Of a DNA stretch of 64,000 bases, positions 3 to 64,000 are shown piece after piece. Source of the DNA: Dehalococcoidia bacterium. GTDB taxonomy: Bacteria > Chloroflexota > Dehalococcoidia > UBA2979. Positions within the stretch are counted from its first letter, which is position 1, and each line of letters opens with the position of its first letter. The notes under the pieces were generated by a model. That model was not told where the DNA came from, ran no database searches, and saw only the letters and a list, made by a program, of their open reading frames with translations. Location: positions 800,001 to 864,000 of the forward strand of contig OZ244720.1 of assembly GCA_965219085.1 (NCBI GenBank), in the 5' to 3' direction. A program made the translations under genes and the position numbers.

Positions 3-734
3 ACCATTGCGCTCGCGCTCAGCGGTTCAGCGGCGGCGGATGATTTCGCCTTGGTCAGCACCAGCGGGCGAACGCTCTCGGCTCCTTACACGCTCACGAT
101 TCCAGCGGGCAAGCCGGCCGGCGCGGTCCATATCACGACCGTCAACGACGCCGAGCGTGAGCCGGCCGAAACGATCAACATCGCCGCCAGCCGCGACGGC
201 GCCGTCTTCGGCACGGAAACCATGACGATCCGGGCCAGCCCCCTGCGGCTCGAGCTGGCGTCGTTGTCGGTGGCCGGCGTCGGACTGCGCATGTACCCCG
301 CGTTCGACCCGGGCATCCTCCAGTACGCGGTCGGCTGCGCCGACACGGCCGTCGTGAGGATGACGCTGTCGACCAAGCATCAGTCGACGCGGCTGGCAGT
401 CGACGGGATCCGGCAGGTCAGCCAGAACGCGGCGGTCGAGCTCGCGGGGCTCGATGGCGACGACGACATCCAGATCGTGCTCAGCAACGGAGACGGGGCA
501 CACACGACCTACGTCGTGCACTGCATGAGTGCCGGGGACCCCGTGATCGAGATCACGAAGCAGGCGGGCAGCTCGGCCGAGTTGCTCACCGCCAGCGTGA
601 ACCTGTACGGGAGGGGACACGTGCTGGTGATCGACAGCAACGGAGTGCCCGGGTCCACCGCCGGATCATCAGCCCGCGCGTCAACCACTTCCGAACCCAG
701 GCGAACCAACAGCACCCGTACTCCTACGCGGTGA
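3..734 (+). CDS. N-terminal part (open at window edge) of giant surface protein 1: Calx-beta-like and cadherin-like beta-sandwich domains; continues by frameshift into 731..5395
   Basis: Frame is open from base 3 (TIALALSGSAAADDF...). Contains Calx-beta-like TVNDAEREPAETI and beta-sandwich PAFDPGILQYAV. Adding one C at ~650 (gtgccc gggtc) gives NGVPRVHRRIISPRVNHFRTQ...YSYAVILP, in frame with the next ORF. Confidence 0.75.
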   Translation, partial: TIALALSGSAAADDFALVSTSGRTLSAPYTLTIPAGKPAGAVHITTVNDAEREPAETINIAASRDGAVFGTETMTIRASPLRLELASLSVAGVGLRMYPAFDPGILQYAVGCADTAVVRMTLSTKHQSTRLAVDGIRQVSQNAAVELAGLDGDDDIQIVLSNGDGAHTTYVVHCMSAGDPVIEITKQAGSSAELLTASVNLYGRGHVLVIDSNGVPGSTAGSSARASTTSEPRRTNSTRTPTR

Positions 735-3700
735 TTCTGCCTGACCGGTTCCACTCACCGTGGGGGTCGCGGCGCGACTTCGAGATCGCCATTCTCGACG
801 CGAACTTCGACGAGGTGGAGAGGGTCACCACGACGGCTGCGATCCAGCACACCGATCAACACGACTTCCTGATCAAGGAGAACGGCAACTACATCTTCAT
901 GGCGTACGAGCCGGCTCCCCATGATCTCAGCGAATTCCTTGATCCGCATGGCGACCCGTACAGCGTCGACGAGCAAGCGGAGGACTCGCTGATCGAGGAG
1001 GTGAATCCGGATGGAGAACAGGTGTTTCTCTGGAACACGTACGACCACATGTACCTGGGCGACTGCATGCTGGACCAGTTTCCCGCGAACTATGCGCATC
1101 TGAACAACATGCAGTTGGTGGATGGGGGCATCGTCGCCTCGTTCCGCAACTGCGGGCAGGTGCTGGGGATCGACGGGACCACCGGCGCCGTCGAGTGGCG
1201 GCTGGGACGGAGCACCCGCAGCGACGCCGAATGGGAGGCGCTGGGCGTGCCGCCGCCGCTGAAGATCGTCGGCGACCCCTACGTCGAGTTCTGCGGGCAA
1301 CACTCCCCGAAGCTGCTGTCCAATGGCCATTTGTTGCTCTTCGACAACGGTCGACGCTGCCGGGACGATCCGCAGACGGGCGAGCCGCGCCGGCCGGACT
1401 CCCGCTTCAGCCGCGTGGTCGAATACGCGCTCGATCTCGATCGCGGCACCGCGACCTTTGTCCGTCATCACTCCCTGCACGGCGGCTTTGACCGGTTCAC
1501 TCAGTACCAGGGCATCGTCGAGTCGATGGATAACCAGAACTGGTTGATCAGTTGGGGCTGGACCCCGCCCAACGGGAAACCTGCCGACCACCGCCCCGAC
1601 ACGTCGGTCACGGAATACAACCCCACGACCGGGCAAGAACTGCTCTCGCTGACCCTGAGCGACGGCGGCAGCGGCACGCCCCCGCTCAACACCCGCTCCT
1701 ACGCGCTGCCCTTCGAGGCGCTGGCGAAGCAACCCGAAGCGCTGTCGGCGGCGTTCCCCGAGAGCGCGTATTCGTCGACGTTTAGCCTCGGCGCCAGCGA
1801 CGCGCCGACGGTCGTGGTCGAGTTCAGCGAACCGGTCGCGGACTTCCCCGCCGACACGCCCTCCGTGATCGTCCAGGGCGCGACGGTCGCCGGGGTCAGT
1901 CCGCACCTCGTTGCCGGCGAAGCGGCGGACGCCTATCTCTTCACGTTGACCCCAGCCGGCGACGGGCCGGTCACCTTCAATCTCCGCGCCGGTGAGCTGT
2001 GCTCCGCCGGCGGGATTTGCACCCGGGACGGAACCACGCTCTCGTCCGTGCCTGCGCCCTACGTGATCGCGCCGTCGCTCAGGGTGTCCTTCACACAGAC
2101 CGCGTTCAGCGCCGACGAAGGTGAGTCGGCTGCCATCGCCGTCAGCCTGAGCGCCCCCTACCAGGGGCTGCAGAAGCTTGTCGTTCCGATCCTCGTGGCT
2201 GCGACCGGGACCGCTTCCGCCGCCGACTACACCGCCCCGGGGAACGTGGGTTTCGTGGCCGGCGAGTCGCGACGGACCGTGCAGATGCCAATCGGCGACG
2301 ACGCGCTGATCGAAGGCGACGAAACCGTCACGCTCTCGATCGGGGACTTGCCGGAGGGGGTCGTGCTGGGCGACCACCCCTCGACCACGGTGACGATCAC
2401 TGACGCCGACCGCGCCTCGTTGCAACTCTCCATTAGTGACAGTGAGGTGGGCGAGGGCGCCAGCGTGGAGTTGACCGTGAGCCTGAGGGGCGACGCCACC
2501 TTTGCCGCCGCGCAGACGATCGACCTCGTGTTCGAGGGCTCAAGCGCCGAAGAGCGGGTCGACTTCGTCGTCGAGGATGCCGCGGGGCGAACGCTTTCGA
2601 CCCCGCACGCCCTCAACCTCGTGGCGGGTGCCCGCTCAGTCCGGGCCGTTGTCCGCATCCTGGACGATACGCAGGAGGAGGTTGCGGAACGCATCGTGGT
2701 CCGGGCCAAGCTCGGGACAGCCGTCTTCGGCATTGGGGTCATCACCATTGCGGCAAACGACGCCCCGCCCGTACCGACCAACAACCCACCGGCATTCAGG
2801 GAGGGCCTCCGCGCCTCACGCTCGCTCGCCGAGAACGCAGGCTCGAATGAGCATGTCGGCAGACCACTTGAGGCCACGGACGTCGATCCAGGCGACACGC
2901 TGACCTATTCGCTGAGCGGCGGCGACGCCGGCTCGTTCACCCTGGTCCGAGCCAGCGGACAGATCCGGACACGGCCCGCGGTCGCCTACGACTACGAGGC
3001 GAAGTCGAGGTACGAGGTCACGGTGACCGCTTCGGACGGCGAAGCGGAGGCGTCAATCGACGTGACGATCACGGTGGATGACGTGGGCGAGCCGCCCGAT
3101 GCCCCACCGGCGCCGACGGTGACGCCGGCATCACCGTCCAGCCTGGAGGTTATGTGGACGGCGCCCCCCACTCCCGACCGGCCGCCGGTCGGGAGCTACG
3201 ACCTGCGTTACAAGCAGACGGAGGCGGCGACGTTCACCGACGGACCACCGGACGTGAGAGGCACGCGAGCGACGATTGACGGTCTGACGCCGGGCACCGC
3301 CCACGAGGTTCAGGTGCGCGCACGGAACAAGGATGGCGATGGCGCCTGGTCGCCGTCCGGCCACGCACAGACCGCGGTGGTACCGGTGGTGTCGCTGGCC
3401 CTGAAGCCGGCCTCCATTTCGCCGGGCGGGGTCAGCACCGTCACGGCGACGGTGTCGCCCGCCTCGCCAACCGCGTTCAAGCTGAACATCTGGGTGGCGG
3501 CGTTCCCGCCGGTGCTGGGACACTTCACAGTCAGCGCGAACAATGTCCTGGGCTTCGCGGCAAACGAGACGCAGAGCACGGGTCTGGTTGAGATCAAGGG
3601 CATCACTCCGATCGTGGTGAATGTGACCGCGACTGTGTCTCAGGGCGCCACGGTACGGCCTCCGCCTCGCCTGCAACTGACGATTGCGGGTTCCGACGAC

Positions 3701-5395
3701 CCCGACCCCGGCCCCACGCCCGAGCCCGGTCCCGGCCCCACGGGCGGCGGCCCCTCCGGTCCCTCGCCCAGCGAGCTCGACTTCGAGTGGGCGGTGAAGC
3801 ACGACATCGAGGCGCTCGCCGCCGCCAACGCGGCCGCCACCGGCGTCTGGTCCGACGGTGAGACGCTCTGGGTGGCCAACAACCCCGACGGCGCCGGCGA
3901 CGGCGTCTACGCCTACGACCTCGAGACGGGCGAACGCGTCGAGGAGCGCGAGTTCGAGCTCGACGAGGCCAACCGCGCGCCGCGCGGCCTCTGGTCGGAC
4001 GGCACGGTGATCTGGGTCTCCGACAGTGGCCGGGACAAGCTCTTTGCACACGACCTCGCCAGCGGCGAGCGGCTCCTCGACTCCGACCTCGCACTGCACC
4101 CCGATAACGACGACCCACGCGGCATCTGGTCCGACGGCGAGACGATGTGGGTGCTGGATGGCCGCGACGACGCCCTCTTCGCCTACGACCTCGCGAGCGG
4201 CCAGTTGCTCGCCGAGTGCGCCCTCGACAGCGCCAACGGCGACCCCCGCGGCCTCTGGTCGGACGGCGTCACGATCTGGGTCTCCGACGACGGCGCCAAG
4301 CGCCTCTTCGCCTACCGGCTGCCCCTCCTCCCGGAGGAAGCGGCGGTCCCGGACGTGGAGGACGCCGATGCGGACGGGAAGGAGCTCGAGCGCGTCCGCG
4401 ACGAGGAGTTCACAAAGCTCTCCCGCGCCAGCAACAACAGCCCGCGCGGCATCTGGTCCGACGGCGACGTCATCTACGTCGCCGACGCGAGCGACGACAA
4501 GGTCTACAGCTACAACATGCCCGACGCCATCGACGCCCGCCTCGCCTCGCTCACGCTCAGCGGCGTCGAGATCGGCGAGTTCTCCCCTGGGCGGGAGGAG
4601 TACGCGGCAGTCATCGCTGAGGACATCACCGAGACGACGGTCGAGGCCGAGGCGCTGCAGCGCCGCACCACCGTCGTCATCGACCCGCCCGACGCCGACG
4701 ACAACGAGGCGAACGGCCACCAGGTCGCGCTCGAAGGCGTCGAGGCGATCACTGTCACCGTCACCTCCGCCGACGGCAGCCGCACGAAGACCTACCGCGT
4801 GCGCTTCCCCGAGACGGGCTGGGATCCGGCCCGCGATCCCTGGCCCCACTGCCTGCGCGGCGCCGTCTCCGCGGGCTTCAGCCTCGTCGTCTTCGCGGGC
4901 GGCGGCGTCGACGAACTCTCCGCCTGCGCGGAGAGCCGGGAGATCGTGGCCTTCTACACCCTGCACGAGGGCGTCTACGTCTCCTACCTCGTCGCGGCGC
5001 CTGACTTCGTCAACCGCGCGTTCAGGGAGCTCTTCGGCGACGGGCTCCCGCTCATGACGCCGCTGGTCGCCGGCAGCGACGGACCGCCCTCGGCGGACCC
5101 CTTCGGCGGTGACCTCGACGGCGCTGGGCAGCCGTGGCCGCACTGCCTGCGCGGCGAGGTCGCAGAGGGCTTCAGCATCGTCGTTTTCGCGGGCGGCAGC
5201 GTCGCCGACCTCGTCGCCTGCGCCGAGAGCCGGGCTGTCACGGCCCTCTACATCCTGCACAACGGCGAGTGGGTGTCCTACATCCTCGGGGCGCCGGAGT
5301 TCGCGAACCTCGAGTTCAGGGAGCTGTACGCCGACGGGCTGCCCGCCCTCACGCCGCTGGTCGCCAAGAGTGAGGGCGCACCTGCCGCCAACTGA
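731..5395 (+). CDS. Giant surface protein 1: arylsulfotransferase (ASST)-like domain, Ig-like, Calx-beta, cadherin, FN3, then shared C-terminal module
   Basis: ASST-type motifs DQHDF, YAHLNN, ASFRN, GQHSP, LLFDNG, LISWG. Cadherin motifs (NNPPAF, DYEAKSRYEV), an FN3 domain, and GxWSDG propeller repeats follow. Confidence 0.85.
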   Translation: MILPDRFHSPWGSRRDFEIAILDANFDEVERVTTTAAIQHTDQHDFLIKENGNYIFMAYEPAPHDLSEFLDPHGDPYSVDEQAEDSLIEEVNPDGEQVFLWNTYDHMYLGDCMLDQFPANYAHLNNMQLVDGGIVASFRNCGQVLGIDGTTGAVEWRLGRSTRSDAEWEALGVPPPLKIVGDPYVEFCGQHSPKLLSNGHLLLFDNGRRCRDDPQTGEPRRPDSRFSRVVEYALDLDRGTATFVRHHSLHGGFDRFTQYQGIVESMDNQNWLISWGWTPPNGKPADHRPDTSVTEYNPTTGQELLSLTLSDGGSGTPPLNTRSYALPFEALAKQPEALSAAFPESAYSSTFSLGASDAPTVVVEFSEPVADFPADTPSVIVQGATVAGVSPHLVAGEAADAYLFTLTPAGDGPVTFNLRAGELCSAGGICTRDGTTLSSVPAPYVIAPSLRVSFTQTAFSADEGESAAIAVSLSAPYQGLQKLVVPILVAATGTASAADYTAPGNVGFVAGESRRTVQMPIGDDALIEGDETVTLSIGDLPEGVVLGDHPSTTVTITDADRASLQLSISDSEVGEGASVELTVSLRGDATFAAAQTIDLVFEGSSAEERVDFVVEDAAGRTLSTPHALNLVAGARSVRAVVRILDDTQEEVAERIVVRAKLGTAVFGIGVITIAANDAPPVPTNNPPAFREGLRASRSLAENAGSNEHVGRPLEATDVDPGDTLTYSLSGGDAGSFTLVRASGQIRTRPAVAYDYEAKSRYEVTVTASDGEAEASIDVTITVDDVGEPPDAPPAPTVTPASPSSLEVMWTAPPTPDRPPVGSYDLRYKQTEAATFTDGPPDVRGTRATIDGLTPGTAHEVQVRARNKDGDGAWSPSGHAQTAVVPVVSLALKPASISPGGVSTVTATVSPASPTAFKLNIWVAAFPPVLGHFTVSANNVLGFAANETQSTGLVEIKGITPIVVNVTATVSQGATVRPPPRLQLTIAGSDDPDPGPTPEPGPGPTGGGPSGPSPSELDFEWAVKHDIEALAAANAAATGVWSDGETLWVANNPDGAGDGVYAYDLETGERVEEREFELDEANRAPRGLWSDGTVIWVSDSGRDKLFAHDLASGERLLDSDLALHPDNDDPRGIWSDGETMWVLDGRDDALFAYDLASGQLLAECALDSANGDPRGLWSDGVTIWVSDDGAKRLFAYRLPLLPEEAAVPDVEDADADGKELERVRDEEFTKLSRASNNSPRGIWSDGDVIYVADASDDKVYSYNMPDAIDARLASLTLSGVEIGEFSPGREEYAAVIAEDITETTVEAEALQRRTTVVIDPPDADDNEANGHQVALEGVEAITVTVTSADGSRTKTYRVRFPETGWDPARDPWPHCLRGAVSAGFSLVVFAGGGVDELSACAESREIVAFYTLHEGVYVSYLVAAPDFVNRAFRELFGDGLPLMTPLVAGSDGPPSADPFGGDLDGAGQPWPHCLRGEVAEGFSIVVFAGGSVADLVACAESRAVTALYILHNGEWVSYILGAPEFANLEFRELYADGLPALTPLVAKSEGAPAAN
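3735..5395 (+). repeat. Shared C-terminal module, copy 1 of 3 (~1.7 kb)
   Basis: Starts at GPTGGGPSGPSPSELDFEW; nucleotide sequence nearly identical to 12635-14332 and 32942-34633. Confidence 0.95.
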
Positions 5396-5679
5396 CTTCT
5401 CTCCCCTGCCTGCTCCTCTTTGGTTCGAGACCGAGCTGCTCCGTCTACACGTGCCTCAGGCGTCGCACGGGGAGGGGATGCCACTCTGGCCGCCACCAGA
5501 AGCCAAGCCACATGAGAGGGGGAGAGGTCACGGCACGGTAGGCCGTGGCCTCCCCCCACCCACCCCCCAGGGTGTGCAGGCTCTTCAGCGTCCTGGCCGA
5601 GGCAACTGTGGAGCCGCCCCCAACTCTCTCGGCCCCAATCGCCGCCCAAGCCGGGCTCGAACGCCACGCTTCAGCGCTG

Positions 5680-5731
5680 TTGACCAAGACACATTATGTC
5701 ATTGACTCACATCATGCGCGTCCGTTCTAAT
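5680..5731 (+). promoter_or_regulatory. Conserved upstream motif, copy A (TTGACCAA-N6-TTATGTCATTGAC), with candidate -35 TTGACT and -10 TCTAAT
   Basis: ttgaccaagacacattatgtcattgactcacatcatgcgcg; recurs at 21357, 50557(-), 54836 and partially at 52919(-). Confidence 0.7.
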
Positions 5732-8700
5732 TCCGCACCGAGCAAGGCGGCAAGACACGCCAGCCGGCCGACAAGACAGAGGCCGGGGCTCGCGACGGGG
5801 GGTACGCCCCCGGAGGTGTTGCAAGTCTTGCCAACTCAGCCGCCCGCCGTCCTGCACGACCCCCGATGTCAGCCTGGCCGGCGAGCCGCACTCGCCCGGA
5901 CAGGCTTCCTCCGGCTGGCGCTGCTCGTGGCGGCCGCCGTGCTCACCCTGCTGGCGCTGCCCTGGGTCGCCCATGCCGAGGGCGACGGCGCCGCCTCCAG
6001 CGCCAGCCCCGACGTGCGGAGCTCGGCGCGCAACGTGACTGCCATCGCACTGGCGAGCACCTCCCCGACCACCGCGACCGCCACCGTGACGGTCAGTGCG
6101 GCGGGAACGTTCCATCTGCGGTTCTCTCTCAAGGACGAGGACCAGTGGCAGACGGCGGCGCCGGCCATCGCCTCGGCAGCGGAGGACCTGACCTTCAGCC
6201 TCACGGGCCTGGTGGCGAACGCCTACTTCGACGTCCAGGTGTCGGAGGACTCCACCTTCGGGACAGGCGTTGAGAGCATCACCTTCCAGAACCGGCCCGC
6301 GGATCTCGACTTTGCGTTGGCCGAAAGCGACATTCCCACAGGCATCGCGGGAGACGCCAGCACGCTCTGGATCGCGTTCGACGGGTTCACTGCCGAGGGG
6401 AATCATTTCGGCATTCCGACGAAGCTGCTGGCCTACAAGCGCCTGCCCGAGGCCGAACGTGGAAACCGTGACGAGGACAAGGACATCACCCCAACGACGG
6501 GCCACAACCTACCAGGCGGCCTCTGGTCCGACGGGACGCACCTGTACGCCGTGGACCAGTCCCAGTTCAGGGTCTACGTCTACAAGCTGTCGGACGGAAG
6601 CCGGGCGGCGTCCAGGGAATTCGCTTTCCCTGGCGACCACTCCAACGCGAAGGGCATCTGGGCCAACCGCGACACGTTCTGGGTCGTTGCCCCCCGGCAC
6701 AGCGCCTATGCCTACAAGCGCACACCGGCCAGTCAGTACGGCGACCGCGACACGGCGAAGGACATCACCCTGCACGAGGATGGCAGCTACGCTCTTCGCG
6801 GCCTCTGGTCCGACGGTGACACGATATGGGCGGTCGACGGCGTTGATCGGAAGGTCCATGCCTTCGATCTGCGGCACGGTCTCCCCTTGCCGGAGTTGAG
6901 TGTCCCGCTGGCCCGCGCTCACTCCGCCGTCGGGGCCCCATCGTGGGGAGCCAGCGGCATGTGGGGAGACGGGGAGCACCTCTGGATCCTGGATGCCAAT
7001 CGCGGCGATCGCAACGGGTCAACGGTCTTCGTCTACTACCAGCCGCGGCTGGACCCGAGCGTATCCGCGCTGTCCGTCATCTCCGCTACCGACACCGCCC
7101 TCACTATTCGCGCCGACATGATCTACCCCGACCCCAGCAGGACCGTGTACCTGCGTTACCGCGAGCCTTTCGGCGACACCTGGTCCACGACCAGTGGGAC
7201 AGGCGGACGGACCATCGACTTCACGATCTCCGGGCCGCCAGCAGCGCCCACGCTCGTGGTACAGGCCTCACTCGACAGCACCTTCTCCGACGGGACCGAA
7301 GCCACGGCGGAGCTGCTGGTGCGGCCGGCGCAGCACGACTTCGCCCTGACGCGAGGGACCGGGCAGGTGCGCGGTATCTGGACCGACGGAGCAACCCTGT
7401 GGGCCGTGCACGACACGCACGATGGGGGGCGCGTCGACGCCTACAACCTGAGCACCAAGGCCTACGACGCCTCCAGGAGCTTCGCGCTCGCTTCCGGGAA
7501 CACCGCCCCTCGCGGCGTCTATGCGAACAGCAGCAACATGTGGGTGGTCGACGAGCAGGACAAGGTGTGGGCCTACGCGCTCTCCGGCTCCTCCTTCGGC
7601 AGCGTAGACAGCACGAGGACTTTCGAGATAGCGACCGAGAGCGGCCACCCGAGAGGGGCGTGGTCCAACGACACCACGTTGTGGGTAGCGGGCCACGTCC
7701 GGGAGCGGGTCCTTGCCTACAACATCGCCAGCACCGGCACCCTCGGAGCGCGCGACACAGCGAAGGAGGGCGCGCTCGCCACCTCCTACGCACAACCCAG
7801 GGGCATGTGGTCCGACGGGACCACACTCTGGGTCGTCGACGACAGCCTGGACAGGGTCTATGCCTACGCTCTGGCGGACACGGGTGTCGGGGCGCGGAAG
7901 CCCCTCCGGGAGATAAACCTGGTCCGCGAGAACCCGGCGCCGTGGGGGATCGCCTCGAGCGGAAACATCCTCTACGTGGCCGATGAGGTGAAGGCCAGGG
8001 TGTACGCCTACATGCTGCCGGCTGCGCCGAGCGGGGACATCACCAATGTGGCGTTCGATCAGGTCGGACGAACGACGGCGAGCATCACGGTCACCATCAA
8101 CAACCCCGACGCCTCCGAGCAGACGGTCGCTCTCAAGTACCGGGCTCTGCCGGATGGCGCGGCTCAGGAGGTGAGCGAGACGACCAGCGGTACATCCGTC
8201 ACCTTCGATTTGACGGGCCTGACGACCGACACCCTCCACGCCCTCCGCGTCAGCCTTGGTACCGCGGGCGCACTGCATACTCCCGGGTTCAAGACCCAGT
8301 CCGAAAAGGAGCAACGAGGTCACTACCTGAACGAGGAAGTTGTCTCCGTACTCGAAGGGGACTACCCATGGTTGGGCGAGCTGTACGAACACATGCGTCG
8401 CTTAAGCCTTGATATCCGTCCGCTTTCCGACACCAAAGTGTTCCTGGATTGCGAGACCAGCAGAATAGAGCAGTTGGCTGGCTGTGCGGTTGTTGGCATT
8501 AACATGGGCAAGCGGCACGCATCTGACACTGGCGTTTACGTCCATGAGCTGGGTCACGTCTACAATGCGGGATCACGGTACATGGGAGAAGATTCCGAGG
8601 GTCGCGGCATTGCCTGGCTCTACTTCGCGGACCTCGCGGAGGGGGGAACCGACTGTTTCGTCCATGAGCTCTTTGCCGCTGCCGTCGAGTTCTACACGAT

Positions 8701-50264: not shown

Positions 50265-50557
50265 AGGGCCGCATGCCGGAGACCGGGCCCCGGCTCACGT
50301 CTGCCGCGCGGAGGCGGGAGGTCGGGCGATAGAACGCATGTACGGGGGGCAAGAATGCCCGTGCCGCAGCGGCTGCGGGCGTGGGAGTGGACCGGACGGC
50401 CTGATGCGGCGGTGGAGCGGTCGAGCGCCACGTCACGCCTCCCGGTGCGTGAAGCAGCGTCCCCGCCGGCTGGCCTGGCGGGTTGCTACTCCTCCGAGTG
50501 GGACAAGCGGACAGGATGGGCGCTCAGTGTGTCAATGACATAAGAATCTTTGGTCAA
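50265..50557 (-). promoter_or_regulatory. Conserved motif copy C plus conserved 5' leader
   Basis: Minus strand ttgaccaaagattcttatgtcattgacacac; leader aligns with 21357-21665. Confidence 0.7.
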
Positions 50558-52879: not shown

Positions 52880-52919
52880 ACCCATGATGAGCGTCAATGG
52901 CATAAACAAAGTTGTGCAT
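52880..52919 (-). promoter_or_regulatory. Variant motif copy E in the LysR divergent intergenic region
   Basis: Minus strand atgcacaa-ctttgt-ttatgccattgacgctcatcatg; same spacing as copies A-D. Confidence 0.55.
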
Positions 52920-53012: not shown

Positions 53013-53942
53013 GTGTCCCGCCTGCCCCCCCTTGAGAGCCTGCGCTTCTTCGAGGCGGCCGCCCGCCACGAGAGCTTCTCCAAGGCCGCGGCCGAGCTGG
53101 GCGTCACGGCGGCGGCCGTCGCCTACCGCGTGCGCGCCCTCGATGAGCATCTCGACGCCGCGCTCTTCGAACGCCGCCAGCGGGGCGTGCTCCTCAATGC
53201 CCGGGGTCGGGCCTACCTGCAGGAGGTGCAGCGCATCCTCGCCGAGTTCCACGGCGTCTCCGAGCGCCACAGCCGCCAGCCGCGCCGTGTCCGCATCATC
53301 TCGGTGGAGGCGGTCGCTGAGAAGTGGCTGCTGCCGAGGCTGGCGGCGCTCGAGGCGGCCCATCCCGGCATCGCCATCGAGCTGGAGACCAACCACCGCG
53401 GTGTCGACCCCGGCAGCCGCGACTTCGACGCCTGGATCGCCTACACCGGCGCGACCGCGGCGCCGCACCCGGCCACGCGGCGCGTCGACACGCTGATCGA
53501 GGAGACGCTCTACGAGGAGCAGCTGCTTCCGGTCTGCAGCCCGGCCTTGCTCGCGGCGCGCGGGCAGCCCCGCGGCGCGGTCGAGCTGGACGGCTGGCCC
53601 CTGCTCTACGACCTGGGCTGGGACACCGACTGGGCGTACTGGTCCGCCTGCCAGCACGAGCCCGCGCCGGACCTCTCGCGGGCCTCGGGCTTCCGCCTCT
53701 ACAGCATGGTGGTCGACGCCGCCGGCCAGGGGCTCGGGGCCGCGATCGGGCGCCCGGCGCTGATTGCGGACGAGCTCGCGAGTGGGGTGCTTGTCCCCGT
53801 CTTGGAGCAGCAGGCCGACGCCCCCGAGCGCTGCTGCCTCATCACCACCGCAGCCTCCCGGCGCAAGCCCGAGGTCCAGGCCTTCCGCCAGTGGATCCTC
53901 CGTCAGGCCCGATCCCCCGCGCATCCAACGCGAGCACGCTGA
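53013..53942 (+). CDS. LysR-family transcriptional regulator (GcvA-like)
   Basis: LPPLESLRFFEAAARHESFSKAAAELGVT HTH; WLLPRL..L...HP.I; GLGAA. Confidence 0.95.
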   Translation: MSRLPPLESLRFFEAAARHESFSKAAAELGVTAAAVAYRVRALDEHLDAALFERRQRGVLLNARGRAYLQEVQRILAEFHGVSERHSRQPRRVRIISVEAVAEKWLLPRLAALEAAHPGIAIELETNHRGVDPGSRDFDAWIAYTGATAAPHPATRRVDTLIEETLYEEQLLPVCSPALLAARGQPRGAVELDGWPLLYDLGWDTDWAYWSACQHEPAPDLSRASGFRLYSMVVDAAGQGLGAAIGRPALIADELASGVLVPVLEQQADAPERCCLITTAASRRKPEVQAFRQWILRQARSPAHPTRAR

Positions 53943-54870: not shown

Positions 54871-54894
54871 CGCGCCCCGCGCTCCCTATGGCCG

Positions 54895-56040
54895 ATGCAC
54901 GGGATGCGAGCACTTCTCGGAGGGGGCGTCCGCCAGGCGGGTGACGCTGTGCCGGCGGTGGGCATACGGCGCGCGGCACGGCGTCGGCCGCCGATCCCAC
55001 GCCGTCTTCCGCCAGCGTGGCGCTGGCCTGCCCCGGGGGCCGGCGGGTCGGCGCTTGTGCTGCTGGCCGTGTGGGCAGCGGTCCTCCTCGCCTGTGGAGA
55101 CGGCGGAGTGCGCGAGCCCCATGCGGGCAGCCCCGCGACCGCGGAGACCGCCAGCCCCGCCGTAATCGCGACGCAGGCCGCGGTCGGGGCGCGCTCACAG
55201 CCGGCGACCACCACCGCTCCCGTCACGGCGACCGCCACCAGTCCGGCCGCGGCAACCGCCACCAGTCCGGCCACGGCGACCGCCACCACGCCAGCTGCGG
55301 CAACCGCCACCACGCCAGCCGCGGCAACCGCCACCAGTCCGGCCACGGCAACCGCCACCACGCCGACCGCCCCTACGCCAGCCGCGGCGACCACCCCTGC
55401 TCCAGCTACGGCGAGCGCCACCACTCCGTCCCCGGAGGCCGACGCCTCGGGCACGCCTGCGTCCTCCGCAGGCACGGAGCGGCCCGCCGCGCCCAGCGGG
55501 GCCCGCGCGCCGAGCGGGGGCGCCCGGCAGGCGCCCGCCGATCCGGCCGGGAACGCGACAACCGTCTCCAAGCCGGCGCCGACGGACGCTGACGCGGGCG
55601 TGCCCTACACCTGGCGGGACGGCGACCGCACGAGGCGCGCCCGGCTGCAGCCCCACCTCGTCCTGCAGCGCAGCAGCGCGAACGCCAAGGACGATGTGGT
55701 CCTGCACGACGACGGGCGCGAGAGCATCGTCGAGCGCCGCGCGCGGCACGCCGAGGGCGGGCCGCCGGTCTTCCGAAATGAAGGCGGATCGCTCGTGACG
55801 CTGCCCGGCGGTGTGCTGCTGGTGCTCGATCCGGGTTGGGACGAGACCCGGATCAACCGCTTCTTTTCGGTCAACGCGATCAAGCCGGACCGCGTCACGG
55901 CGCAGGCCTTCGCCGACAACGCCTTCCTGGTTGCGACCGAGCCCGGCTGGGCCTCGCTGGAGCTGGCCAACGCGCTGGCCGAGCAGGACGGCGTGCTGAT
56001 CGCCAGTCCCAACTGGCGATCGCAGATCACGCTGCGATGA
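54895..56040 (+). CDS. Lipoprotein with Thr/Ala/Pro linker and C-terminal subtilase-propeptide/chaperone-like domain
   Basis: Lipobox LLAC; TATATSPA repeats; C-terminal LPGGVLLVL...SLELANAL....GV..ASPNW; stop overlaps the protease start (ATGA). Start codon uncertain. Confidence 0.75.
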   Translation: MHGMRALLGGGVRQAGDAVPAVGIRRAARRRPPIPRRLPPAWRWPAPGAGGSALVLLAVWAAVLLACGDGGVREPHAGSPATAETASPAVIATQAAVGARSQPATTTAPVTATATSPAAATATSPATATATTPAAATATTPAAATATSPATATATTPTAPTPAAATTPAPATASATTPSPEADASGTPASSAGTERPAAPSGARAPSGGARQAPADPAGNATTVSKPAPTDADAGVPYTWRDGDRTRRARLQPHLVLQRSSANAKDDVVLHDDGRESIVERRARHAEGGPPVFRNEGGSLVTLPGGVLLVLDPGWDETRINRFFSVNAIKPDRVTAQAFADNAFLVATEPGWASLELANALAEQDGVLIASPNWRSQITLR

Positions 56041-59000
56041 GAGCTTGGGTCGCGGTCGCGGTCATCATTGCCTGCGCGCTGGTGGCTTGGGTGGCGGCCA
56101 ATGAGGCGCGCGCCCAGGCCGTGCCGGCGGCGCCGACCGGGATCATGCTGACGGCCACGACGAACTCGCTCAGCGTCGGCTGGACCGTGCCGGCGAGTGA
56201 CGGCGACTCACCGATCACGTTCTACGACCTGCACTACATCGAGAGCGCCGCGACGGACAAGGCCGATGACAAGTGGACACTCGTGACGCGCGTCTGGAGC
56301 GATGGCGAACTCAGCTACACGCTCGCGGAGCTGCTGGACGGGGTCGCCTACGACGTGCGGCTGCGGGCCGTCAACAGCGTCGGTCCCGGCGAGTGGTCGG
56401 CCACGACATCGGCGTCGACCAGCGACCACGGCGGCACCGACGCGACGGCCACGAAGCTGGCGCTGGGTAGGTCACTCCCGGGACGGATCGACACCGGCGG
56501 CGACGAGGATCGCTTCAGGATCGTACTCCAAGAGCAGACCGATCTGTGGCTCTATACGACGGGCGAGGCAGATACCGCGGGCGAACTGACCCGAGGCGGC
56601 ACGGTGTTGCATTCGAATGGCGACGGCCAGCTGCCGCCCAATCCGCGCAACTTCTCTTTGCGCGAGGTAGTTGACGCCGGAACCTACTACGTGATCGTTC
56701 GCGGCCAACAGGGCGCAGCGCCGGTCGACTACCGGCTGCACGCCGCCGCGGTGCAGGCCGTGGGCAGCAGCACCTCGAAGAGGGTCGAGCTGGGCTCGCT
56801 GACGCCTGCTCGCCTGGTCCGGAACGGTTGGGTCGACCGATTCAGGATTGTGCTGACCGAAGCCACCGACCTCTGGGTGATGTCGATCGGCGCGACCGAT
56901 ACGGTGGGCGGGCTATATGACGCCGACGACGAACCGATCGCCGATTCAGACGACGGCTCGCTGCCCGGGAACTACCTCGGGTTCAACCTTCGCGCACAAG
57001 TTGATGCGGGTACCTATTACATCCGGGTCGAGGGCTTCGCTGCCCGAGAGGAGGGGCCCTACATCCTCTACACGGCGGCGGCGGGCGATCCCGGCGACTC
57101 GATCGCTGCCGCCACCCCACTCAGGTTCGACCTGCCGGCAGCCGGCCGGATCGAACCGGCCGGCGACGAAGACTACTTCAGCCTCAGCGTGCCCACGCCT
57201 GGCGAAGTGACGCTATGCGCCCTCAAATTCGACCGCGAGCGGTTCCGGCTCAACATGGCGCTGTCCGACGCGGACGGGAACCCCGTCGGGATCAGCGTCA
57301 CGCGGGGGATAGGCTGCGGCTTATATGCACTGGGCCCATCCAGCGTCGCGAGCATGATCCGCCTGGGCGCGGGCGTCTACCACCTGCGCGTGACGATGAG
57401 CGGCGATCGGACAGAAGCGTACACGCTCGCGGCCCAGCTCGATCCGGAGACGAGAGAAATGGAGCGGGACTGCCTGTCCCGCGGCTCCTCACAGAGCGAC
57501 CCCCTGTACGGCTGCCAGTGGTACCTCAACAACACCGGGCAGTACGGCCGTGGAGCGGGGCAGGACATCAATGTCGAGGAGATCTGGGCGACCAACAAGG
57601 GCGCGGGCGTCAACGTGGCCGTGGTCGACGATGGGCTGGACCTCGATCACGAAGACCTGAGCGCAAACATCAGCCTGGAGGGCAGTCACGACTACACGCC
57701 GGAGGTGCCCTGGGATAGCAGGACCGACTGGCATTCCACGTATGTGGGCGGCGTGATCGGCGCCCGCGACAACGCCCTCGGCGTTCGCGGAATCGCGCCC
57801 AGAGCGACGCTCTACAGCTATCGCGCGCTGCTGGGCACAGGGGCGGATCGGATCGACGCGCTGGTGCACCAGATGGCGGAGGTCGCGGTCTCGAACCACA
57901 GTTACGGTTTCGAGGACAATGGCCAGTACCACTACGCGGGGAGGCCCTGGGAGATGGCGGTCGAGCGCGGGGTGCACGAAGGCTACGGCGGCAAGGGCGT
58001 TTTCTACGTCTGGGCCGCCGGCAACGGCTCCGCTTTTGGCGACACCGCCAACTATGACTCAAAGGCGAATCACTACGGGATCACGGCGGCCTGCGCCGTC
58101 GATTACCTAGACGCGCGGTCGGGCTACTCGGAGCTGGGCGCCAACCTCTGGGTCTGCGCTCCGTCCTCGCCCGGCGGTTTCAGCTTTCTCCCGCGAATCA
58201 CCACGACTGACAACTCCAATCGCTACACACATATCTTCGGCGGGACCTCGGCCACGGCGCCGATTGTCGCCGGGGTGGCGGCGCTGCTGCGCGCCGCCCA
58301 TCGCGAGCTGAGCTGGCGCGATCTGAAGCTGATCCTGGCCGGCTCGGCGCGCCGCAACGACCCTGGACACAGCCACTGGGAAGAGGGCGCGCTGAAGTAC
58401 GGCTCGACCGACGAGCGTTACTGGTTCAGCCACAGTTACGGCTTCGGCGTGGTCGACGCCGGGGCGGCGATGGCGCTGGCCGACGACTGGACCAGCCCGC
58501 CCGCCTGGCGCGAACTCAGCGCGACCTCCAACGAGCAGATCGTGTTTGGCAGCGGCGAGACCGGTAGCAGCAGCATCACGCTCGATCCCCATGTGGACTT
58601 CGTCGAGTTCGTCGCCGTCGAACTCGAAATCAGCCACCTCTACTACCGGCATCTGCGGATCAAGCTGACCTCTCCCAGCGGGGAGACATCCACCCTCGTC
58701 TTTCCGCTCACCATCAGAGGTGAGATCGAGCCCTGGGTGAAGGCGACGCCGCGCTTCGGTTCGGCCAAGCACCTGGGCGAGAACGCGGCCGGCGAATGGA
58801 CCCTGGAAATCGTCAACGAGGGAGTCGTTGGTCCCGCAACACTCCATTCCTGGAAGCTGACCGCCTACGGCCACGGCTACAACCCGGGCTTCGCCGAGCT
58901 GCGCGCGGTCGCGGCCCGCGACCGTGCGATCCTCGTCGTCTGGGAGGCGCCGACCGACACCGGCGCAACGGCCGTCAGCTCCTACGACCTGCGCTACCGG

Positions 59001-61593
59001 CGCAGCGACGCGGCGGGCCAGGCGGAGGGCGGCGGGTGGACGGAGCGGAGCGGCGTCTGGTCCTCGGGATCGTTATCGTTGTCGTATCAGCTCGAGGGGT
59101 TGGTCGCGGGCGGGCGCTACGAACTGCAGCTGCGGGCGGTCAATGAGGCCGGCCCCGGTCCCTGGTCGGAGAGCCTGGAGGCGGCGACCGAGGCGGTCGC
59201 GCCGGAGGCGCCCGCGATTACGCAGGTCGAACCCGGCAACGCCGCGCTCAAGCTGAACTGGACAGCGCCGGCCCACGACGGCGGGGCGGCGATCACCTCC
59301 TACGACGTGCGCTCGATCGCGACCAGCGCCGACGAGACCGTGGACGCCAACTGGACTCCCTCCGCCGGCGCGTGGACGTCAGGCGCGCTCGAACACAGGC
59401 TCACGGGACTGAGCAACGGCGTCTCCTACGACGTGCAGGTGCGGGCGGTCAACCGGGTCGGGGCGGGCGACTGGTCGGCGATATCCGAGGGAACCCCGCG
59501 CACGGTGCCGGGGGCGCCGGCGGTCGAGACGGTGAGCGGGGGCCGGCGCAGTCTCACGGTCGCGTGGAGCGCGCCCGCCGGCGGCGTCGGCGCGGCCATC
59601 AGCTCCTATGCCATGCAGTACATCCGCAGCGACGCCGCGGACAAGAGCGCCGCCCGGTGGTCTCCCGCCCCGGTCGCATGGACCCCCGGCGACACCCTCC
59701 GCGCAACCATCACCGGCCTCGAGGACGGCGCCGGCTACGACGTGCAGGTGCGGGCGCTGAACACGGTCGGCGCGGGCCTCTGGTCGGCCAGCGGCACCGG
59801 CCAGACCCTCCCCTCGGAGGATGCCACGCTCAGCGGCCTGCAGCTGCCCGGGGTGCGGCTGGCGCCCGCGTTCGCGAGCGAGACGACCGAGTACGCGGCG
59901 GCCGTGGGGTACACGGTGCGGCGGGTCACGGTCGAGGCGGCGCGGAGCGACGGCGACGCCACAGTCGCGTACCTCGACGGTAACGGCATGTCACTCAGCG
60001 ACGCCGACGCCGATAGCGCAAACGGCTTCCAGGCCGACCTGTCGGTCGGGGAGAACGTGATCCGGGTACGGGTGACGGCCGAGGACGGCACCACGACGCG
60101 GACCTACCGCGTCACGGTGACGCGCACCAAAGAAGACCTGTCGCTCACGCCGGCGGTAAGCGATCCGTCCGCCCCGTTCGCCTCCACGGCGACCTACAGC
60201 ATCCGCTTCCAGGGTGACTGGAGGACCGCCGTGACGCCCGCGGGCCTGCCCTCGGGCGCGCACTTCTCGCGCCTGATCGGCGGCGTCCACAACGCCGGCG
60301 TGAGCTTCCTCGAGAGCGGCGGGAGGGCCAGTGCGGGTGTCGAGTCGATGGCGGAGGTCGGGGGCTGGACGGGCCTGCGAGACGAGGTCCAGAACGCCGG
60401 CGCGAACGCGCTCGGGGTCCTGGTTGGCGACACCGACAACATCGGGCCGACGACCGCGAAGACGCTGACCGCCGAACTCGCCGGCTCGCACCCGCGGGTC
60501 ACGCTGACGACCATGATCGCGCCCAGCCACGACTGGTTCGTCGGCGTCTCCGGTCTGCCGCTGCTCAACGCCTCCGGTCTCTGGCTGCGCTCGCACGAGC
60601 TGCCGCTCTATCCCTGGGATGCCGGCACCGAGGAGGGCGACGACTTCTCGCTCGAACCCAGCGTCGACACCACGCGCGGTGTCATCACGAGCATCCGCGG
60701 CACGGGCAAGTTCACCACCGAGCGGATCGCCGGCCTCACCTTCACGCTCCAGTCGGTCGAGACCACGCGCAGTCTCGTCGAGAACACGGCCGGGGTCGTG
60801 GACCTGGGGCCGCCGGTCGCGCCCGTGGCGAGCGATGGCGCGGTCGGCTACACGCTCGGCGGCGCCGACGCCGCCTCGTTCGACCTCGACGAGGCGACGG
60901 GCCAGCTGAGCACGAAGGCGGGCGCAACCTTCAACCACGAGGAACAGGGCAGCCACAGCGTGACCGTCACCGCCACGGACACCGACGGCCCGGTCGTCAC
61001 GACCGTGCAGATTCACGTCACCGACCTCGACGAACCGCCGGCCATCGCGGGGCCGGAGGCCAGGGACTATCGGGAGAACGCAACGACCTCCGTGGCCACC
61101 TACCGCGCCAGCGATCCGGAGGAGGCGCCGGTCGAGTGGTCACTCTCGGGAGACGACCGGAGTCACTTCTCCATCTCCGGCGGCGTGCTCAGCTTCGACC
61201 AGCCCCCCGACTACGATGCGCGGGCCGACTCGGACGGAAACAACGACTACGAGGTCACCGTCGAAGCGTCCGACGGTAGCCTCAGCGGGCGCCTCGACGT
61301 GACCGTCACGGTCAGCGACGTCAACGAACCGCCGGAGATCACCCCCGCGGACGACATCGCGGTCGACGAGAACTACGACGGAACGCTTGCCGCCTTCAGC
61401 GCACGCGACCCCGAGAACGAGCCGGGCCTCACCTACACCTGGTCGCTGGCGGGAACCGACGCGGGCGACTTCAACCTCGGCGAGGCCGGCGTGCTTGCGT
61501 TCAAGCACATCCCCGACGCCGACAACCCGGCCGACTCCGGGCGGGACAACGTCTACGACATCACGGTGCGCGCCGAGGACAGCGCGGGCCTTA

Positions 61594-62775
61594 GGGATGG
61601 TCTGAACAGGTGGCGTATCGGGCGCGGTGCGGGTCGATCGGCGTACTGCGCTGCGCTGCGCTGCGGGGGCCGATACCGCGGTCCATGGGTGGTCTCGCCT
61701 CCATGTCGCTCCGGAAGCGCTCCGGCGGGCGATTCGGGACGCACGGCTCCCGCGATCACGCGAGCTGAGGCTCGGCTCGCAACAGGTTCGTGAAACCGAG
61801 CAGCAGCGTGAGACGCTCGCGGTTCTTCTCAAGACCCCGGTAGCGGACCTTCGCGTACCCGAAGTGCCGCTTCACGTAGAGAAACGGATGCTCAACCTTC
61901 GCTCGCACCGAGGCCTTGCGCCGCTCCGCCTGCGCCTCAGCGCCCCCCGGCGCCAGCTGCCGCCTGAGACCCGGACGCAGCGCCACCTGCCAGCTCACCT
62001 CCGACCCCGCGTGCTCCGGGCGCTTCTCCACTCCCTGGTAGCCGGCGTCGCCCCACGCCTCCGTCTCGCCGCCGTGCAAGAGGTGATGCGCCTCGGTCAC
62101 GTCGGAGACGTTCGCCGCCGTCGTGCTCACGCTGTGGACCAGTCCCGTCCGCGCATCCGTGCCGGTGTGCAGCTTCATCCCGAAGTACCACTGCCGGCCC
62201 TTTCTGGTCTGGTGCATCTCGGGGTCGCGCGCACGCTCGCGGTTCTTCGTCGATGACGGCGCGCTGATGATCGTGGAGTCCACGATCGTGCCCTCGCGCA
62301 CCTGCAGCCCCTGCCGTGCGAGGTGCGCGTTGATCGTCGCGAACAGCGCCGTTCCCAGCTGATGACGCTCCAGCAGATGGCGGAAGTTGAGGATCGTCGT
62401 CTCATCGGGAATCGGCTCGGAGAGGCTGAGACCGGCGAACTCGAGCATCGAACGGGAGTCGTAGAGTTCCTGCTCCATGCCAGGGTCGCTGAGGTTGAAC
62501 CAGAGTTGGAGGCAGTGGATGCGCAGCATCACGCGCAGCGGGTAGGGGCGGCGCCCGCGGCCCGGCTTCGGGTAGACGGGCGCGATGCGCTGCTCCAGCT
62601 CAGCCCAGGGGACGAGCCTGTCCATGCGCTCGAGGAACGCCTGCCGCCTCGTCTTGACCTTCTTGTGCTCGTACTCGACGCTGCCGAACGAACGCTGCTG
62701 CATGGGGCGCCCCTCTCCGGGTCGCCCCATGATCGCATCTGCTCACCCGCTCAGGCGAGTTGTTCAGACCATCCC
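61594..62775 (-). mobile_element. IS5-family element
   Basis: Perfect 15-bp IRs gggatggtctgaaca / tgttcagaccatccc; TA(G) target duplication. Confidence 0.95.
61756..62703 (-). CDS. IS5-family transposase
   Basis: MQQRSF, KTRR..FL..M, PDETTILNFRHLLE, IVDSTII, WYFGMKLH, GDAGYQG, RAKVEHPF. Confidence 0.95.
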   Translation of the reverse strand: MQQRSFGSVEYEHKKVKTRRQAFLERMDRLVPWAELEQRIAPVYPKPGRGRRPYPLRVMLRIHCLQLWFNLSDPGMEQELYDSRSMLEFAGLSLSEPIPDETTILNFRHLLERHQLGTALFATINAHLARQGLQVREGTIVDSTIISAPSSTKNRERARDPEMHQTRKGRQWYFGMKLHTGTDARTGLVHSVSTTAANVSDVTEAHHLLHGGETEAWGDAGYQGVEKRPEHAGSEVSWQVALRPGLRRQLAPGGAEAQAERRKASVRAKVEHPFLYVKRHFGYAKVRYRGLEKNRERLTLLLGFTNLLRAEPQLA

Positions 62776-64000
62776 TAGGGGCAGCATCGACATCACCGTA
62801 ACGGTCAGACCCGTCAACGAGCCGCCCACCATCAACGGCGACGCGACTCCCGGCATCAAGGAGGAGGGTTCGCTCCTCGTCGGGACGTACCGGGCCAGCG
62901 ACCCGGAGGGCGACACCATCGCCTGGCAACCGCTCGGCGGGAGCGACGGCGACAGGTTCGAGTTCACCTCCTCGAACGGCAGGCTCGCGTTCAAGGCGGC
63001 GCCGGACTACGAGTCCCCGACGGACGTAGGGCGCAACAACGAGTACTCGGTGAGGCTGCGCGCCTCCGACGGCTCGAACATGGAGACGCACGACGTGATG
63101 GTGACCGTCACGAACGAGGAGGAGCCCGGAACGCTCGGCCTCTCCTCGGAGCAGCCGCTGGTGGGGACCGTCCTCACGGCCACCTTCGCGGACCCCGACG
63201 GCGTGCTCAGTGAGTCGTGGTCCTGGCAGCGCTCGCCGAACCGCAGCACCTGGAGCGAGATCGGCGGCGCCGCGAGCGAGCGCTACACGCCGCTCGCTGC
63301 CGACCTGAACCACTACCTGCGGGTGACGGTCGACTACACCGACGGCCACGGCCCAGACAAGCGCATCCAGAAGAGGGCGGACGACCGCGTCGAGGAGCCG
63401 CCCCCGGTGAACTACCCACCGGAGTTCCCCGGCTCCACGGCGGAGCGCTCCATCGCCGAGAACGCGGCCGAGGGAACGCCTGTCGGCGACCCGGTCAGCG
63501 CCACCGATGCCAACGACGACACGCTGACCTACGCGCTCGCTGCGGACCCCTTCACGATCGACGACGATGGCCAGATCCGGGTCGCGCGGGGCGCGGCGCT
63601 CGACTACGAGGCGGGAACGCTGTACGTCGTCACCGTGACCGCCACCGATCCCTCCAACGCCAACGCCATTGTTTTCGTCAGCATCAGCGTCACGGACGTG
63701 AACGAGCCGCCGGAGGCCGTGGACGACCCGCGTACGACCGATGAGGACGAGGAGTTGACCATCGACGTCATCGCCAACGACCGCGATCCCGAGAACGACG
63801 ACCTCACCGTCAGCCTCCGGAACAGGCCCCGCAACGGGTCCGCAACGGTCGAGACCGACAACACCGTCACCTATACGCCCAACGCCAACTACCACGGCGC
63901 CGACAGCTTCACCTACAGCATCTCCGATGGCAGTCTCAGCTCCGGGCAGGCCACGGTCGCCGTCACCATCGATCCGGTGAACGACGACCCCGCGTTCGCG

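Follow-up and report, generated by a model that had tools for sequence, protein, structure and literature searches.

What do the five giant genes that crowd a single 64,000-nucleotide (nt) stretch of a Dehalococcoidia genome encode, and what could be the role of the C-terminal part that most of them have in common? The stretch, hereafter the window (G000:C1:800001-864000), belongs to a genome of one contig (3,305,961 bases, ~68% G+C), and the giant open reading frames (ORFs) listed in it lie at 731-5395, 5696-14332, 21716-34633 and 55836-61793 on the + strand, and at 41499-48224 on the - strand. Together, these five ORFs sum to 38.9 kb, or 61% of the window, a figure that rises to ~43.6 kb (68%) when the interrupted parts are counted, in keeping with the two thirds estimated in an initial annotation of this DNA. 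They encode giant secreted proteins of a multigene family confined to one lineage, in which variable N-terminal parts (heads) are combined with a mostly constant, recombining C-terminal module (the tail); we consider it rather probable that the tail serves to tether the proteins to the cell envelope.

A family of giant proteins with varied heads and a common tail

The five genes, their tail modules and the lesions that break three of them are listed below, in window positions unless otherwise stated.

1..5395, + strand: gene 1 (Pfam); its 5' part lies outside the window, the frame being open from genome position 796727
3727..5395, + strand: tail module of gene 1, 90.5-91.9% identical in DNA to the modules of genes 2 and 3
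5696..14332, + strand: gene 2, intact, 2878 amino acids (aa) as listed
12631..14332, + strand: tail module of gene 2, from DNA self-comparison and tail alignment
21716..34633, + strand: gene 3, intact, 4305 aa
32942..34633, + strand: tail module of gene 3, in which all three parts described below (propeller, sandwich, end-domain pair) are present
41499..50216, - strand: gene 4, broken, with its true start at 50216 and the signal peptide MTRAGRGRLPVPFAALAALALALLFSPVQA
50004..50006, - strand: in-frame TAG of gene 4, at a conserved Trp position of Pur_ac_phosph_N
48074..49439, - strand: IS256-family element that splits gene 4 within its Metallophos domain
56037..64000, + strand, continuing to genome position 865917: gene 5, broken by an insertion sequence (IS); listed ORF 55836-61793
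61595..62775, - strand: IS5-family element, inside gene 5

Sec-type signal peptides with an AxA cleavage site were recognized at the N-termini of genes 2 to 5, by eye from the sequence rather than with a predictor. Downstream of these, the domain content assigned by Pfam differed from gene to gene. Gene 1 encodes two ASST domains (the second, together with Calx-beta, in the part before the window), cadherin and fn3 domains, and the tail. In gene 2, the signal peptide is followed by N-terminal propeller repeats, a region with the motif HELGH, fn3, cadherin-like, Spond_N, cadherin and Big_9 domains, and the tail; its true start probably lies between 5696 and 5850, because the listed ATG belongs to the upstream motif described below. 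Gene 3 displays, after its signal peptide, adhesion modules only (10 cadherin-like sandwich domains, fn3, cadherin, Calx-beta and an N-terminal propeller) and then the tail. Gene 4 encodes a signal peptide, Pur_ac_phosph_N, Metallophos, cadherin, a PPDK_N core, immunoglobulin-like (Ig-like) repeats and two fn3 domains. Gene 5 harbors a signal peptide, fn3, PPC, Peptidase_S8, P_proprotein, three fn3, cadherin-like, Spond_N, cadherin and Big_9 domains, and the tail; its protease has the arrangement of a kexin-like subtilase, namely a PF00082 domain (E 5.7e-33) followed by the P domain PF01483 (E 2.4e-16). The proposal that the heads differ therefore holds by Pfam for all five genes, except that the HExxH enzyme attributed to gene 2 comes down to the bare HELGH motif, its region matching no Pfam family and only weakly fn3.

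Self-comparison of the window located the 3' module at 3727-5385, 12631-14334 and 32942-34635, with 90.5-93.1% DNA identity over ~1.66-1.70 kb. Genes 1 to 3 were thus rightly described as sharing it; what had been missed is a fourth carrier, since gene 5 too ends in the module, outside the window (genome 864337-865917), so that the tail is present in 4 of the 5 giant genes (1, 2, 3 and 5) and lacking in gene 4. The same comparison bore out the sharing of other DNA blocks among the giant genes, as exemplified by 10791-11093 and 61295-61596 (93% identity) and by 29842-30144 and 47161-47463 (85%).

The tail spans ~550 residues and consists of (i) a five-bladed propeller of WSDG repeats, (ii) a cadherin-like sandwich, and (iii) two copies of an alpha/beta end domain of ~95 residues. 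When 23 tails of the present genome and of its relatives were aligned (50-93% identity to the gene 3 tail), five repeats of the type PRGxWSDGxTxWVxD became apparent; the two end-domain copies are 54% identical to each other and carry two invariant cysteines each. The AlphaFold model of the whole tail reached a pLDDT of 77.8. Its propeller gave as best Foldseek matches 2iwa, 3nol and 3mbr, which are five-bladed glutaminyl cyclases (E 9e-11 to 1.2e-9; TM score by target 0.68-0.75; 14-15% identity), and belongs by this comparison with the five-bladed folds. The likeness to the plant and bacterial glutaminyl cyclases is confined to that fold, the identity being just 14-15%, and a predicted fold in common does not show a common function.

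For the end-domain pair modeled alone (pLDDT 78.4), each copy displayed the order beta-alpha-beta-beta-alpha-beta. No convincing solved relative emerged for it: the best VIA-align Z among 48,161 chains was 4.3, Foldseek gave no match at E<=0.001 (all E above 0.28), and the protein atlas held no usable match for the pair. Against Pfam at E<=1, the tail matched only NCH3 (a 30-residue stretch per blade), Cadherin-like and, weakly, SGL, and against NCBIfam nothing; no profile match was obtained to SLH, CWB2, LysM, SH3b, the type IX C-terminal domain or dockerin. Nor do the tails have a sortase-type (LPXTG) end, as they terminate in ...KSEGAPAAN or ...DADRDGSASN and lack any hydrophobic stretch. 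Asn closes 21 of the 32 genome frames with a terminal end domain (...EAN, ...AAN, ...SASN; in the window at 5390-5395, 14327-14332 and 34628-34633), and likewise 35 of 144 public representatives, some of which are possibly incomplete. A divergent WSDG propeller with a cadherin-like sandwich occurs also near the N-termini of genes 2 and 3 (6300-8050 and 22200-23200, + strand); the first two parts of the tail are therefore not exclusive to it.

Units resembling the end domain were seen in two other proteins of the genome. One is a secreted protein (G000:C1:2057340-2059280, - strand) in which such a unit stands directly before a Peptidase_S11 DD-carboxypeptidase; this fusion was found in the present genome and in one genome of the same family, while the same query matched in other families of the class through its enzyme part only. 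The other (G000:C1:1141482-1143437, - strand) is a 651-aa acidic, Thr/Val/Asp-rich and Ig-rich secreted protein that matches no Pfam family and has one end-domain-like unit at its end; it is a possible S-layer-type protein.

In the genome as a whole, the tail was matched by 43 reading frames, ~34 of which contain most of the module, and the family frames total ~92,000 codons, or ~8.4% of the genome by summed lengths. A profile of the single end domain detected 39 frames with one to six copies each, the last copy lying within 25 residues of the stop in 32 of them. Scanning 32 further frames (two of them halves of one gene) along with the window genes for Pfam heads, we found (i) Peptidase_S8 with P domain in 12 genes, some of which also have Spond_N or glucose/sorbosone dehydrogenase, and one also ASST, (ii) the dehydrogenase alone in 2, (iii) ASST in 3, one of them also in the S8 count, (iv) sulfatase in 1, (v) GH16 in 1, and (vi) leucine-rich repeats (LRR) in 2, one also counted under ASST. 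The remaining family frames display adhesion repeats only or are short fragments. The earlier enzyme-on-a-stalk picture is an oversimplification, since in some members as many as four head-type domains (three enzyme families and Spond_N) are strung together in a single protein. The family's giants reach 8473 aa, in a locus (G000:C1:1867596-1893017, - strand) with at least 16 fn3 domains, six end-domain copies and further tail pieces, then LysM.

Beyond this genome, the tail was found in 18 of 18 genomes of the same genus, in 23 of 24 genomes of the family, and in 1 of 16 other families of the class. Among pattern matches in named genomes, 315 of 325 encode a relative; their labels read Tepidiformaceae, Dehalococcoidia, Chloroflexota or Chloroflexi, with the exception of one 10.5-kb contig labeled Gammaproteobacteria. 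A total of 720 public proteins of 2367-7534 aa matched the tail at E<=1e-20, and the best 120 of these 720 carry S8 (32), LRR_8 (15), Spond_N (11), PPDK_N (8), GSDH (3) and ASST (2) heads. No single fixed architecture prevails in other genomes, as many head types sit on the tail, and the proposed combination of exchangeable heads with one constant module at the C-terminus extends from the window to ~34 frames of the genome, 18 of 18 genomes of the genus and 720 public proteins. By profile comparison the tail family is at the same time small and restricted to its lineage, since, out of 1.84 billion cluster representatives, the end domain matched no more than 1189 at E<=0.001, a number that falls to 177 at E<=1e-30. 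On other contigs there are long proteins (P0115 and others) in which the match is limited to the propeller and sandwich (43-67% of the tail, with 34-42% identity), and one such match (56% of the tail, 36% identity) is labeled Candidatus Poriferisodalis (Actinomycetota), which hints that the propeller and sandwich part may be shared across bacterial phyla. In the literature covered, which left subscription journals outside, no description of the tail or of the head/tail organization was found.

Exchange and decay among the family genes

How, then, did such different heads come to stand on one tail? A tree of 25 full tails from this genome united genes 1 (ASST), 2, 3 (adhesin) and 5 (S8) and two fragments, located at 361 and 376 kb, in one clade (support 100/99); a separate clade comprised eight genes of an array at 596-719 kb, the heads of which are S8, LRR-ASST, GH16 or adhesin-only (100/99). 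Neighborhood on the chromosome required 8 changes on the tail tree, compared with a mean of 14.65 in shuffles (none of 500 as low), while S8 versus non-S8 heads required 8 changes against a shuffle mean of 7.6. A single clade of the nine S8-gene tails was rejected by the approximately unbiased (AU) test with p 5e-55, a value to be read with the reservation that the group was defined after the tree had been seen, which counts somewhat against our interpretation.

Genes 2 and 5, which are collinear from Spond_N to the end, proved to be mosaic. They are 60-70% identical in most 150-base windows, and 93-100% identical at 10794-11160, 11600-11976 and 13624-14148; their longest identical run measures 242 bases, whereas shuffling the aligned columns 2000 times yielded none longer than 62. 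Selection that varies along the genes may contribute to such uneven identity, and to that extent speaks against exchange, yet it leaves 242 identical bases unexplained. Gene conversion and module shuffling among the family genes are therefore supported, at the level of sequence comparison, by both the mosaic identity and a tail tree indifferent to head type, in line with the diversification by recombination between modules that had been suggested for the window. The family changes by tandem duplication, by gene conversion or recombination between paralogs and by domain shuffling, and decays through insertion sequences and point lesions.

Lesions of both kinds are apparent in the window, where genes 2 and 3 are intact and three of the five genes are broken: gene 1 by a frameshift, gene 4 by a premature TAG and the IS256-family element, and gene 5 by the IS5-family insertion. 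The frameshift of gene 1 lies at ~650, as two paralogous ASST proteins match frame 3 up to this position and frame 2 after it, contiguously in the query. The IS5 transposase (NF033581, E 4.7e-101, 337.9 bits against a cut-off of 140) belongs to an element whose terminal inverted repeats match perfectly over 15 bp and which has TAG on either side; upon its removal in silico, the frame of gene 5 is open over ~2899 aa. The IS256 transposase (PF00872, E 3.7e-134; NF033543, 347.5 bits against a cut-off of 150) is part of an element flanked on both sides by the 8-bp target duplication CCTATTAC, its junctions being taken from the sequence.

For the lesions of genes 4 and 5, Logan contigs (300-850 bases) of runs X1, X2, X5 and X7 were compared over 44001-64000. 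The TAG allele of gene 4 was matched exactly by one contig (run X1, 49967-50275); at position 50005 most contigs of at least 90% likeness in the four runs, which are also more abundant, read C, giving TGG (Trp). The stop may accordingly be a minority allele, or the TGG contigs may come from paralogs or other strains. Among these contigs there was no trustworthy joint across either the IS256 or the IS5 element, the sole joint near IS256 (47815 to 49648) having just 20 bases on a side.

Such short contigs cannot bridge the repeats of a highly repetitive family, and both facts would suit an explanation of the shared blocks as assembly chimeras of a repeat-rich metagenome bin. This we regard as extremely improbable: a divergence of 7-10% suffices to distinguish the copies from one another; the same tail stands on varied heads in all 18 genomes of the genus, many of which are in 1-4 contigs, and in hundreds of public proteins; and both IS insertions show clean inverted repeats and target duplications.

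Proposed role of the tail

After cleavage of the signal peptide, these proteins retain no constant part other than the tail, which would most likely tether them to the bacterium's own envelope. The course of events that we propose begins with a Sec-type signal peptide with an Ala-x-Ala motif, which would direct export and be cleaved. The head, with one or several of kexin-like S8 protease, arylsulfotransferase, sulfatase, GH16, glucose/sorbosone dehydrogenase, spondin-N, LRR or PPDK_N domains, is followed by a run of Ig-like, cadherin and fn3 modules, which would act as a stalk, and, in most members, by the tail. The tail would bind non-covalently to peptidoglycan, a wall polymer or an S-layer, and the enzymes or adhesins would in this way reach into the sponge matrix on long stalks. 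The signal peptides with their AxA sites and the pair of invariant cysteines in each end domain are in accord with a location outside the cytoplasm. Indirect support comes, moreover, from the end-domain-like units beside the DD-carboxypeptidase and at the end of the 651-aa acidic protein, and from the LysM domain that the 8473-aa member adds to its six end-domain copies. Cultured Tepidiforma is described, in the available part of PMC10284905, as monoderm, with peptidoglycan and an S-layer.

Several findings weigh against envelope tethering. No known wall-binding family matches the tail by profile, and no solved fold matches the end domains convincingly (best Z 4.3, as above). The propeller is present near the N-terminus of genes 2 and 3 as well. 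The end-domain-like units of the DD-carboxypeptidase fusion (L122) and of the possible S-layer-type protein (L121) are devoid of the cysteine pair, which makes their relevance uncertain. Gene 4 is tail-less, whereas the PPDK_N proteins of other genomes carry a tail; its PPDK_N core is 57% identical to public proteins that run directly into the tail, while gene 4 continues with other repeats. Finally, with three of the five window genes broken and several members elsewhere in the genome reduced to short fragments, the family may in part be undergoing decay and no longer be used.

Some of these observations would suit a tail that binds the host instead, that is, a lectin or matrix-binding module through which released proteins dock onto one ligand of the sponge matrix or cell surface. 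Five-bladed propellers often bind ligands, and this fold is borne out by the model; similar repeats recur near the N-terminus of genes 2 and 3; and the long proteins with propeller and sandwich only (43-67% of the query) are more widespread, one of them being labeled Candidatus Poriferisodalis. Cadherin and fibronectin-III genes are, moreover, enriched in sponge symbionts and interpreted as attachment factors on the basis of domain counts per genome, according to the available part of Robbins et al. 2021 (PMC8163846). That work resembles ours in habitat and domain types, and its available part contains neither the common tail nor the head/tail organization nor recombination among the genes. 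Attachment of sponge symbionts to the host, feeding on it and tolerance by it have so far mostly been approached via counts of such 'eukaryote-like' domains, and if host binding were true, a common docking site in the sponge matrix would be identified. We nevertheless hold host binding to be rather unlikely: modules for sorting or anchoring are more often confined to the C-terminus, as is the case here (32 of 39 frames), than are tips that bind ligands, the protein would have no other attachment to the cell after cleavage of the signal peptide, and the fusion to a DD-carboxypeptidase points to the bacterial wall.

Tethering to the bacterial envelope, our preferred reading, has precedents. The CWB2 proteins (Cwp) of Clostridioides difficile, SLH-domain proteins and pneumococcal choline-binding proteins are paralogous wall families with a common non-covalent anchor. 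They resemble the present family in their many paralogs, signal peptide, variable enzyme or adhesin part, and constant tandem small domains at one end; the small terminal domains found here in one to six tandem copies on many varied paralogs (terminal in 32 of 39 frames) follow the pattern of such wall modules. Unlike in those families, the tail has no profile match to any of them, nor a clear one by fold, the proteins are much larger (up to the 8473 aa noted above), a propeller and a sandwich precede the small domains, and binding to the envelope is here inferred only. By analogy, the family appears closest in logic to these paralogous wall-protein families of monoderms.

Other modular systems are more distant. 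Polymorphic toxins (Rhs, CDI, MafB) likewise form modular, recombining families with one constant and one variable end; here, in contrast, the constant end is C-terminal, and what varies is a set of hydrolases, transferases and adhesion domains (ASST, S8, Spond_N, PPDK_N, adhesion repeats) instead of toxins. The conserved tail and variable heads agree with the initial annotation in that the arrangement is the reverse of that of polymorphic toxins. No immunity-type gene stands directly 3' of the giant genes: gene 1 is followed by gene 2, gene 3 by an IS1182-family element, and the ORFs 3' of gene 2 match no Pfam family and have a weak third-position GC signal (0.75). Giant adhesins of the RTX/BAP type (LapA, SiiE, MpIBP) have in common with the family thousands of Ig-like, cadherin-like and fn3-type residues as an extender; they differ in that no RTX repeats or type I signal were detected here by Pfam, and in the Sec signal peptides and the enzymes within the chain.

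Type IX cargo and dockerin-bearing enzymes likewise combine diverse catalytic heads with a constant C-terminal module that sets the destination of the protein. After the logic of type IX or type I substrates, the tail could be an export, folding or processing module read by a machine and perhaps removed later. Its strictly C-terminal position, the one to six end-domain copies and the frequent last Asn (21 of 32 frames), which could mark a processing site, would all be consistent with this. Such a role seems quite improbable to us, however, as Sec signal peptides are already present, a three-part module of 550 residues is large for a signal, no candidate machine was seen (though none was searched for), and no profile of a known sorting domain matches, in Pfam or NCBIfam; the end domain is an alpha/beta domain, not a beta-sandwich or an EF-hand pair. 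Furthermore, relatives of the present bacterium are described as monoderm in the available part of PMC10284905.

Envelope tethering can be carried a step further, in a form that we put forward tentatively and regard as possible rather than probable. The two-cysteine end domain might be a hitherto unnamed domain with which monoderm Chloroflexota anchor proteins in their envelope, not only those of the giant family but also a wall-processing DD-carboxypeptidase and a possible S-layer-type protein; the family itself might be a recombining surface-display platform, taking up ~8% of the genome, that shows changing proteases, sulfur-ester enzymes and adhesins to the sponge host, and the frequent C-terminal Asn may mark a step of processing or linkage. 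Roughly a twelfth of the DNA of this genome is devoted to giant secreted proteins of one plan with one unnamed tail, and the genes bear clear marks of ongoing exchange and of breakage by mobile elements. If the tail were an envelope anchor, it would represent a new sorting principle for the Chloroflexota and would give a handle on what these bacteria display in the sponge.

Upstream motif and neighboring genes

Are the giant genes also expressed together? A motif, TTGACCAA-(6-7 nt)-TTATGTCATTGACaCAC, lies upstream of genes 2, 3 and 4, and the initial annotation had assigned it to four giant genes and read it as the common promoter of a co-regulated family. Its copies and the adjoining regulator gene are as follows.

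5665..5713, + strand: motif copy before gene 2 (TTGACCAA...TTATGTCATTGACtCACAT)
21357..21391, + strand: motif copy before gene 3
50523..50557, - strand: motif copy before gene 4
52886..52903, - strand: fourth motif copy, 3 of its positions mismatched, in the intergenic region that separates two divergent genes (DUF1015 and LysR-type)
53013..53942, + strand: LysR-family regulator gene (third-position GC 0.93)

The motif thus stands before genes 2, 3 and 4, at 5696, 21373 and (- strand) 50541, but the fourth match adjoins the LysR-type and DUF1015 genes and not a giant gene. Four matches of its 18-mer at <=3 mismatches were found in the window, compared with 0.01 expected; three of the copies lie 150-340 nt upstream of genes 2, 3 and 4, and the fourth 110 nt before the LysR-type gene. 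An ATG-N11-CAT dyad, which we take to resemble LysR-type operators with their interrupted T-N11-A dyad, is present in 3 of the 4 copies. These features would favor a regulon of the giant genes driven by one promoter motif. On the other hand, no copy beyond the window's four was detected in the whole genome at <=3 mismatches, and 14 other genomes of the same genus yielded a single match, with 3 mismatches. Genes 1 and 5 and ~29 other family members are without the motif and share other 5' regions (the start of gene 1 lies outside the window), one of the three motif-bearing genes is a pseudogene, and a sigma-70 scan of 21200-21800 gave no match, leaving the motif without a sigma-70 fit. We consequently judge such a regulon unlikely. 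With four copies in the genome and near-absence from genomes of the same genus, the motif is a local feature of one genome and not the common promoter of the family. It may be a putative local operator that links the LysR regulator to genes 2-4, with the LysR protein as a candidate binder, for now no more than an idea, of the ATG-N11-CAT box. The best NCBIfam rows for the LysR-type gene were GcvA-like and choline-sulfate-utilisation regulators, both below the cut-off.

The 5' regions of the family fall into groups: the S8 genes, including gene 5 with its different 5' region, show one type, the adhesin genes a second, and genes 3, 4 and partly 2 a third. The leaders of genes 4 and 3 are 78% identical over 355 bp. 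The long leader of gene 3 contains, at 21435-21465 (+ strand) and ~45 nt past the motif, a hairpin of 8 G-C pairs that resembles a terminator and has a T run; the corresponding stretch before gene 4 keeps a hairpin-like sequence, without the T run. The 86 bases directly 3' of the gene 4 stop (41430-41515) are found again at 21076-21160 (92%) in opposite orientation, 640 bases before the start of gene 3.

Gene 5 has a partner gene upstream (P0126), the stop of which overlaps the gene 5 ATG (ATGA). Its product begins with a signal like that of lipoproteins, continues with an extended, tandemly repetitive Thr/Ala/Pro linker, and closes with a domain of ~130 aa, the last residue of which is Arg; it matches no Pfam family and only weakly fn3, and its region has 5' homology with other S8 members of the family. 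At gathering scores, Rfam detected nothing in the window. Runs of eight or more C or G are absent from it, the single C7 standing at 53025, within the LysR-type gene; longer runs are found in other parts of the genome. Six mobile-element genes are present in it; the features of the neighborhood that have not been listed above are the following.

16463-17770, - strand: ISNCY-type transposase gene
18132-19631 and 19628-20377: IS21 pair, istA and istB
35009-36391, + strand: IS1182-family transposase gene, directly 3' of the gene 3 stop
37440-38731, - strand: serine recombinase, frameshifted
39761-40132, + strand: LexA-like HTH gene
51390-52613, - strand: DUF1015 gene
54895..56040, + strand: partner gene of gene 5

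The ISNCY-type gene and the IS21 pair form a cluster (16463-20891) bracketed by a 409-bp direct repeat (17620-18027 and 20485-20891, 98.8%), and the IS1182-family gene stands between two 70-bp direct repeats (34634-34703 and 37062-37130, 87%).

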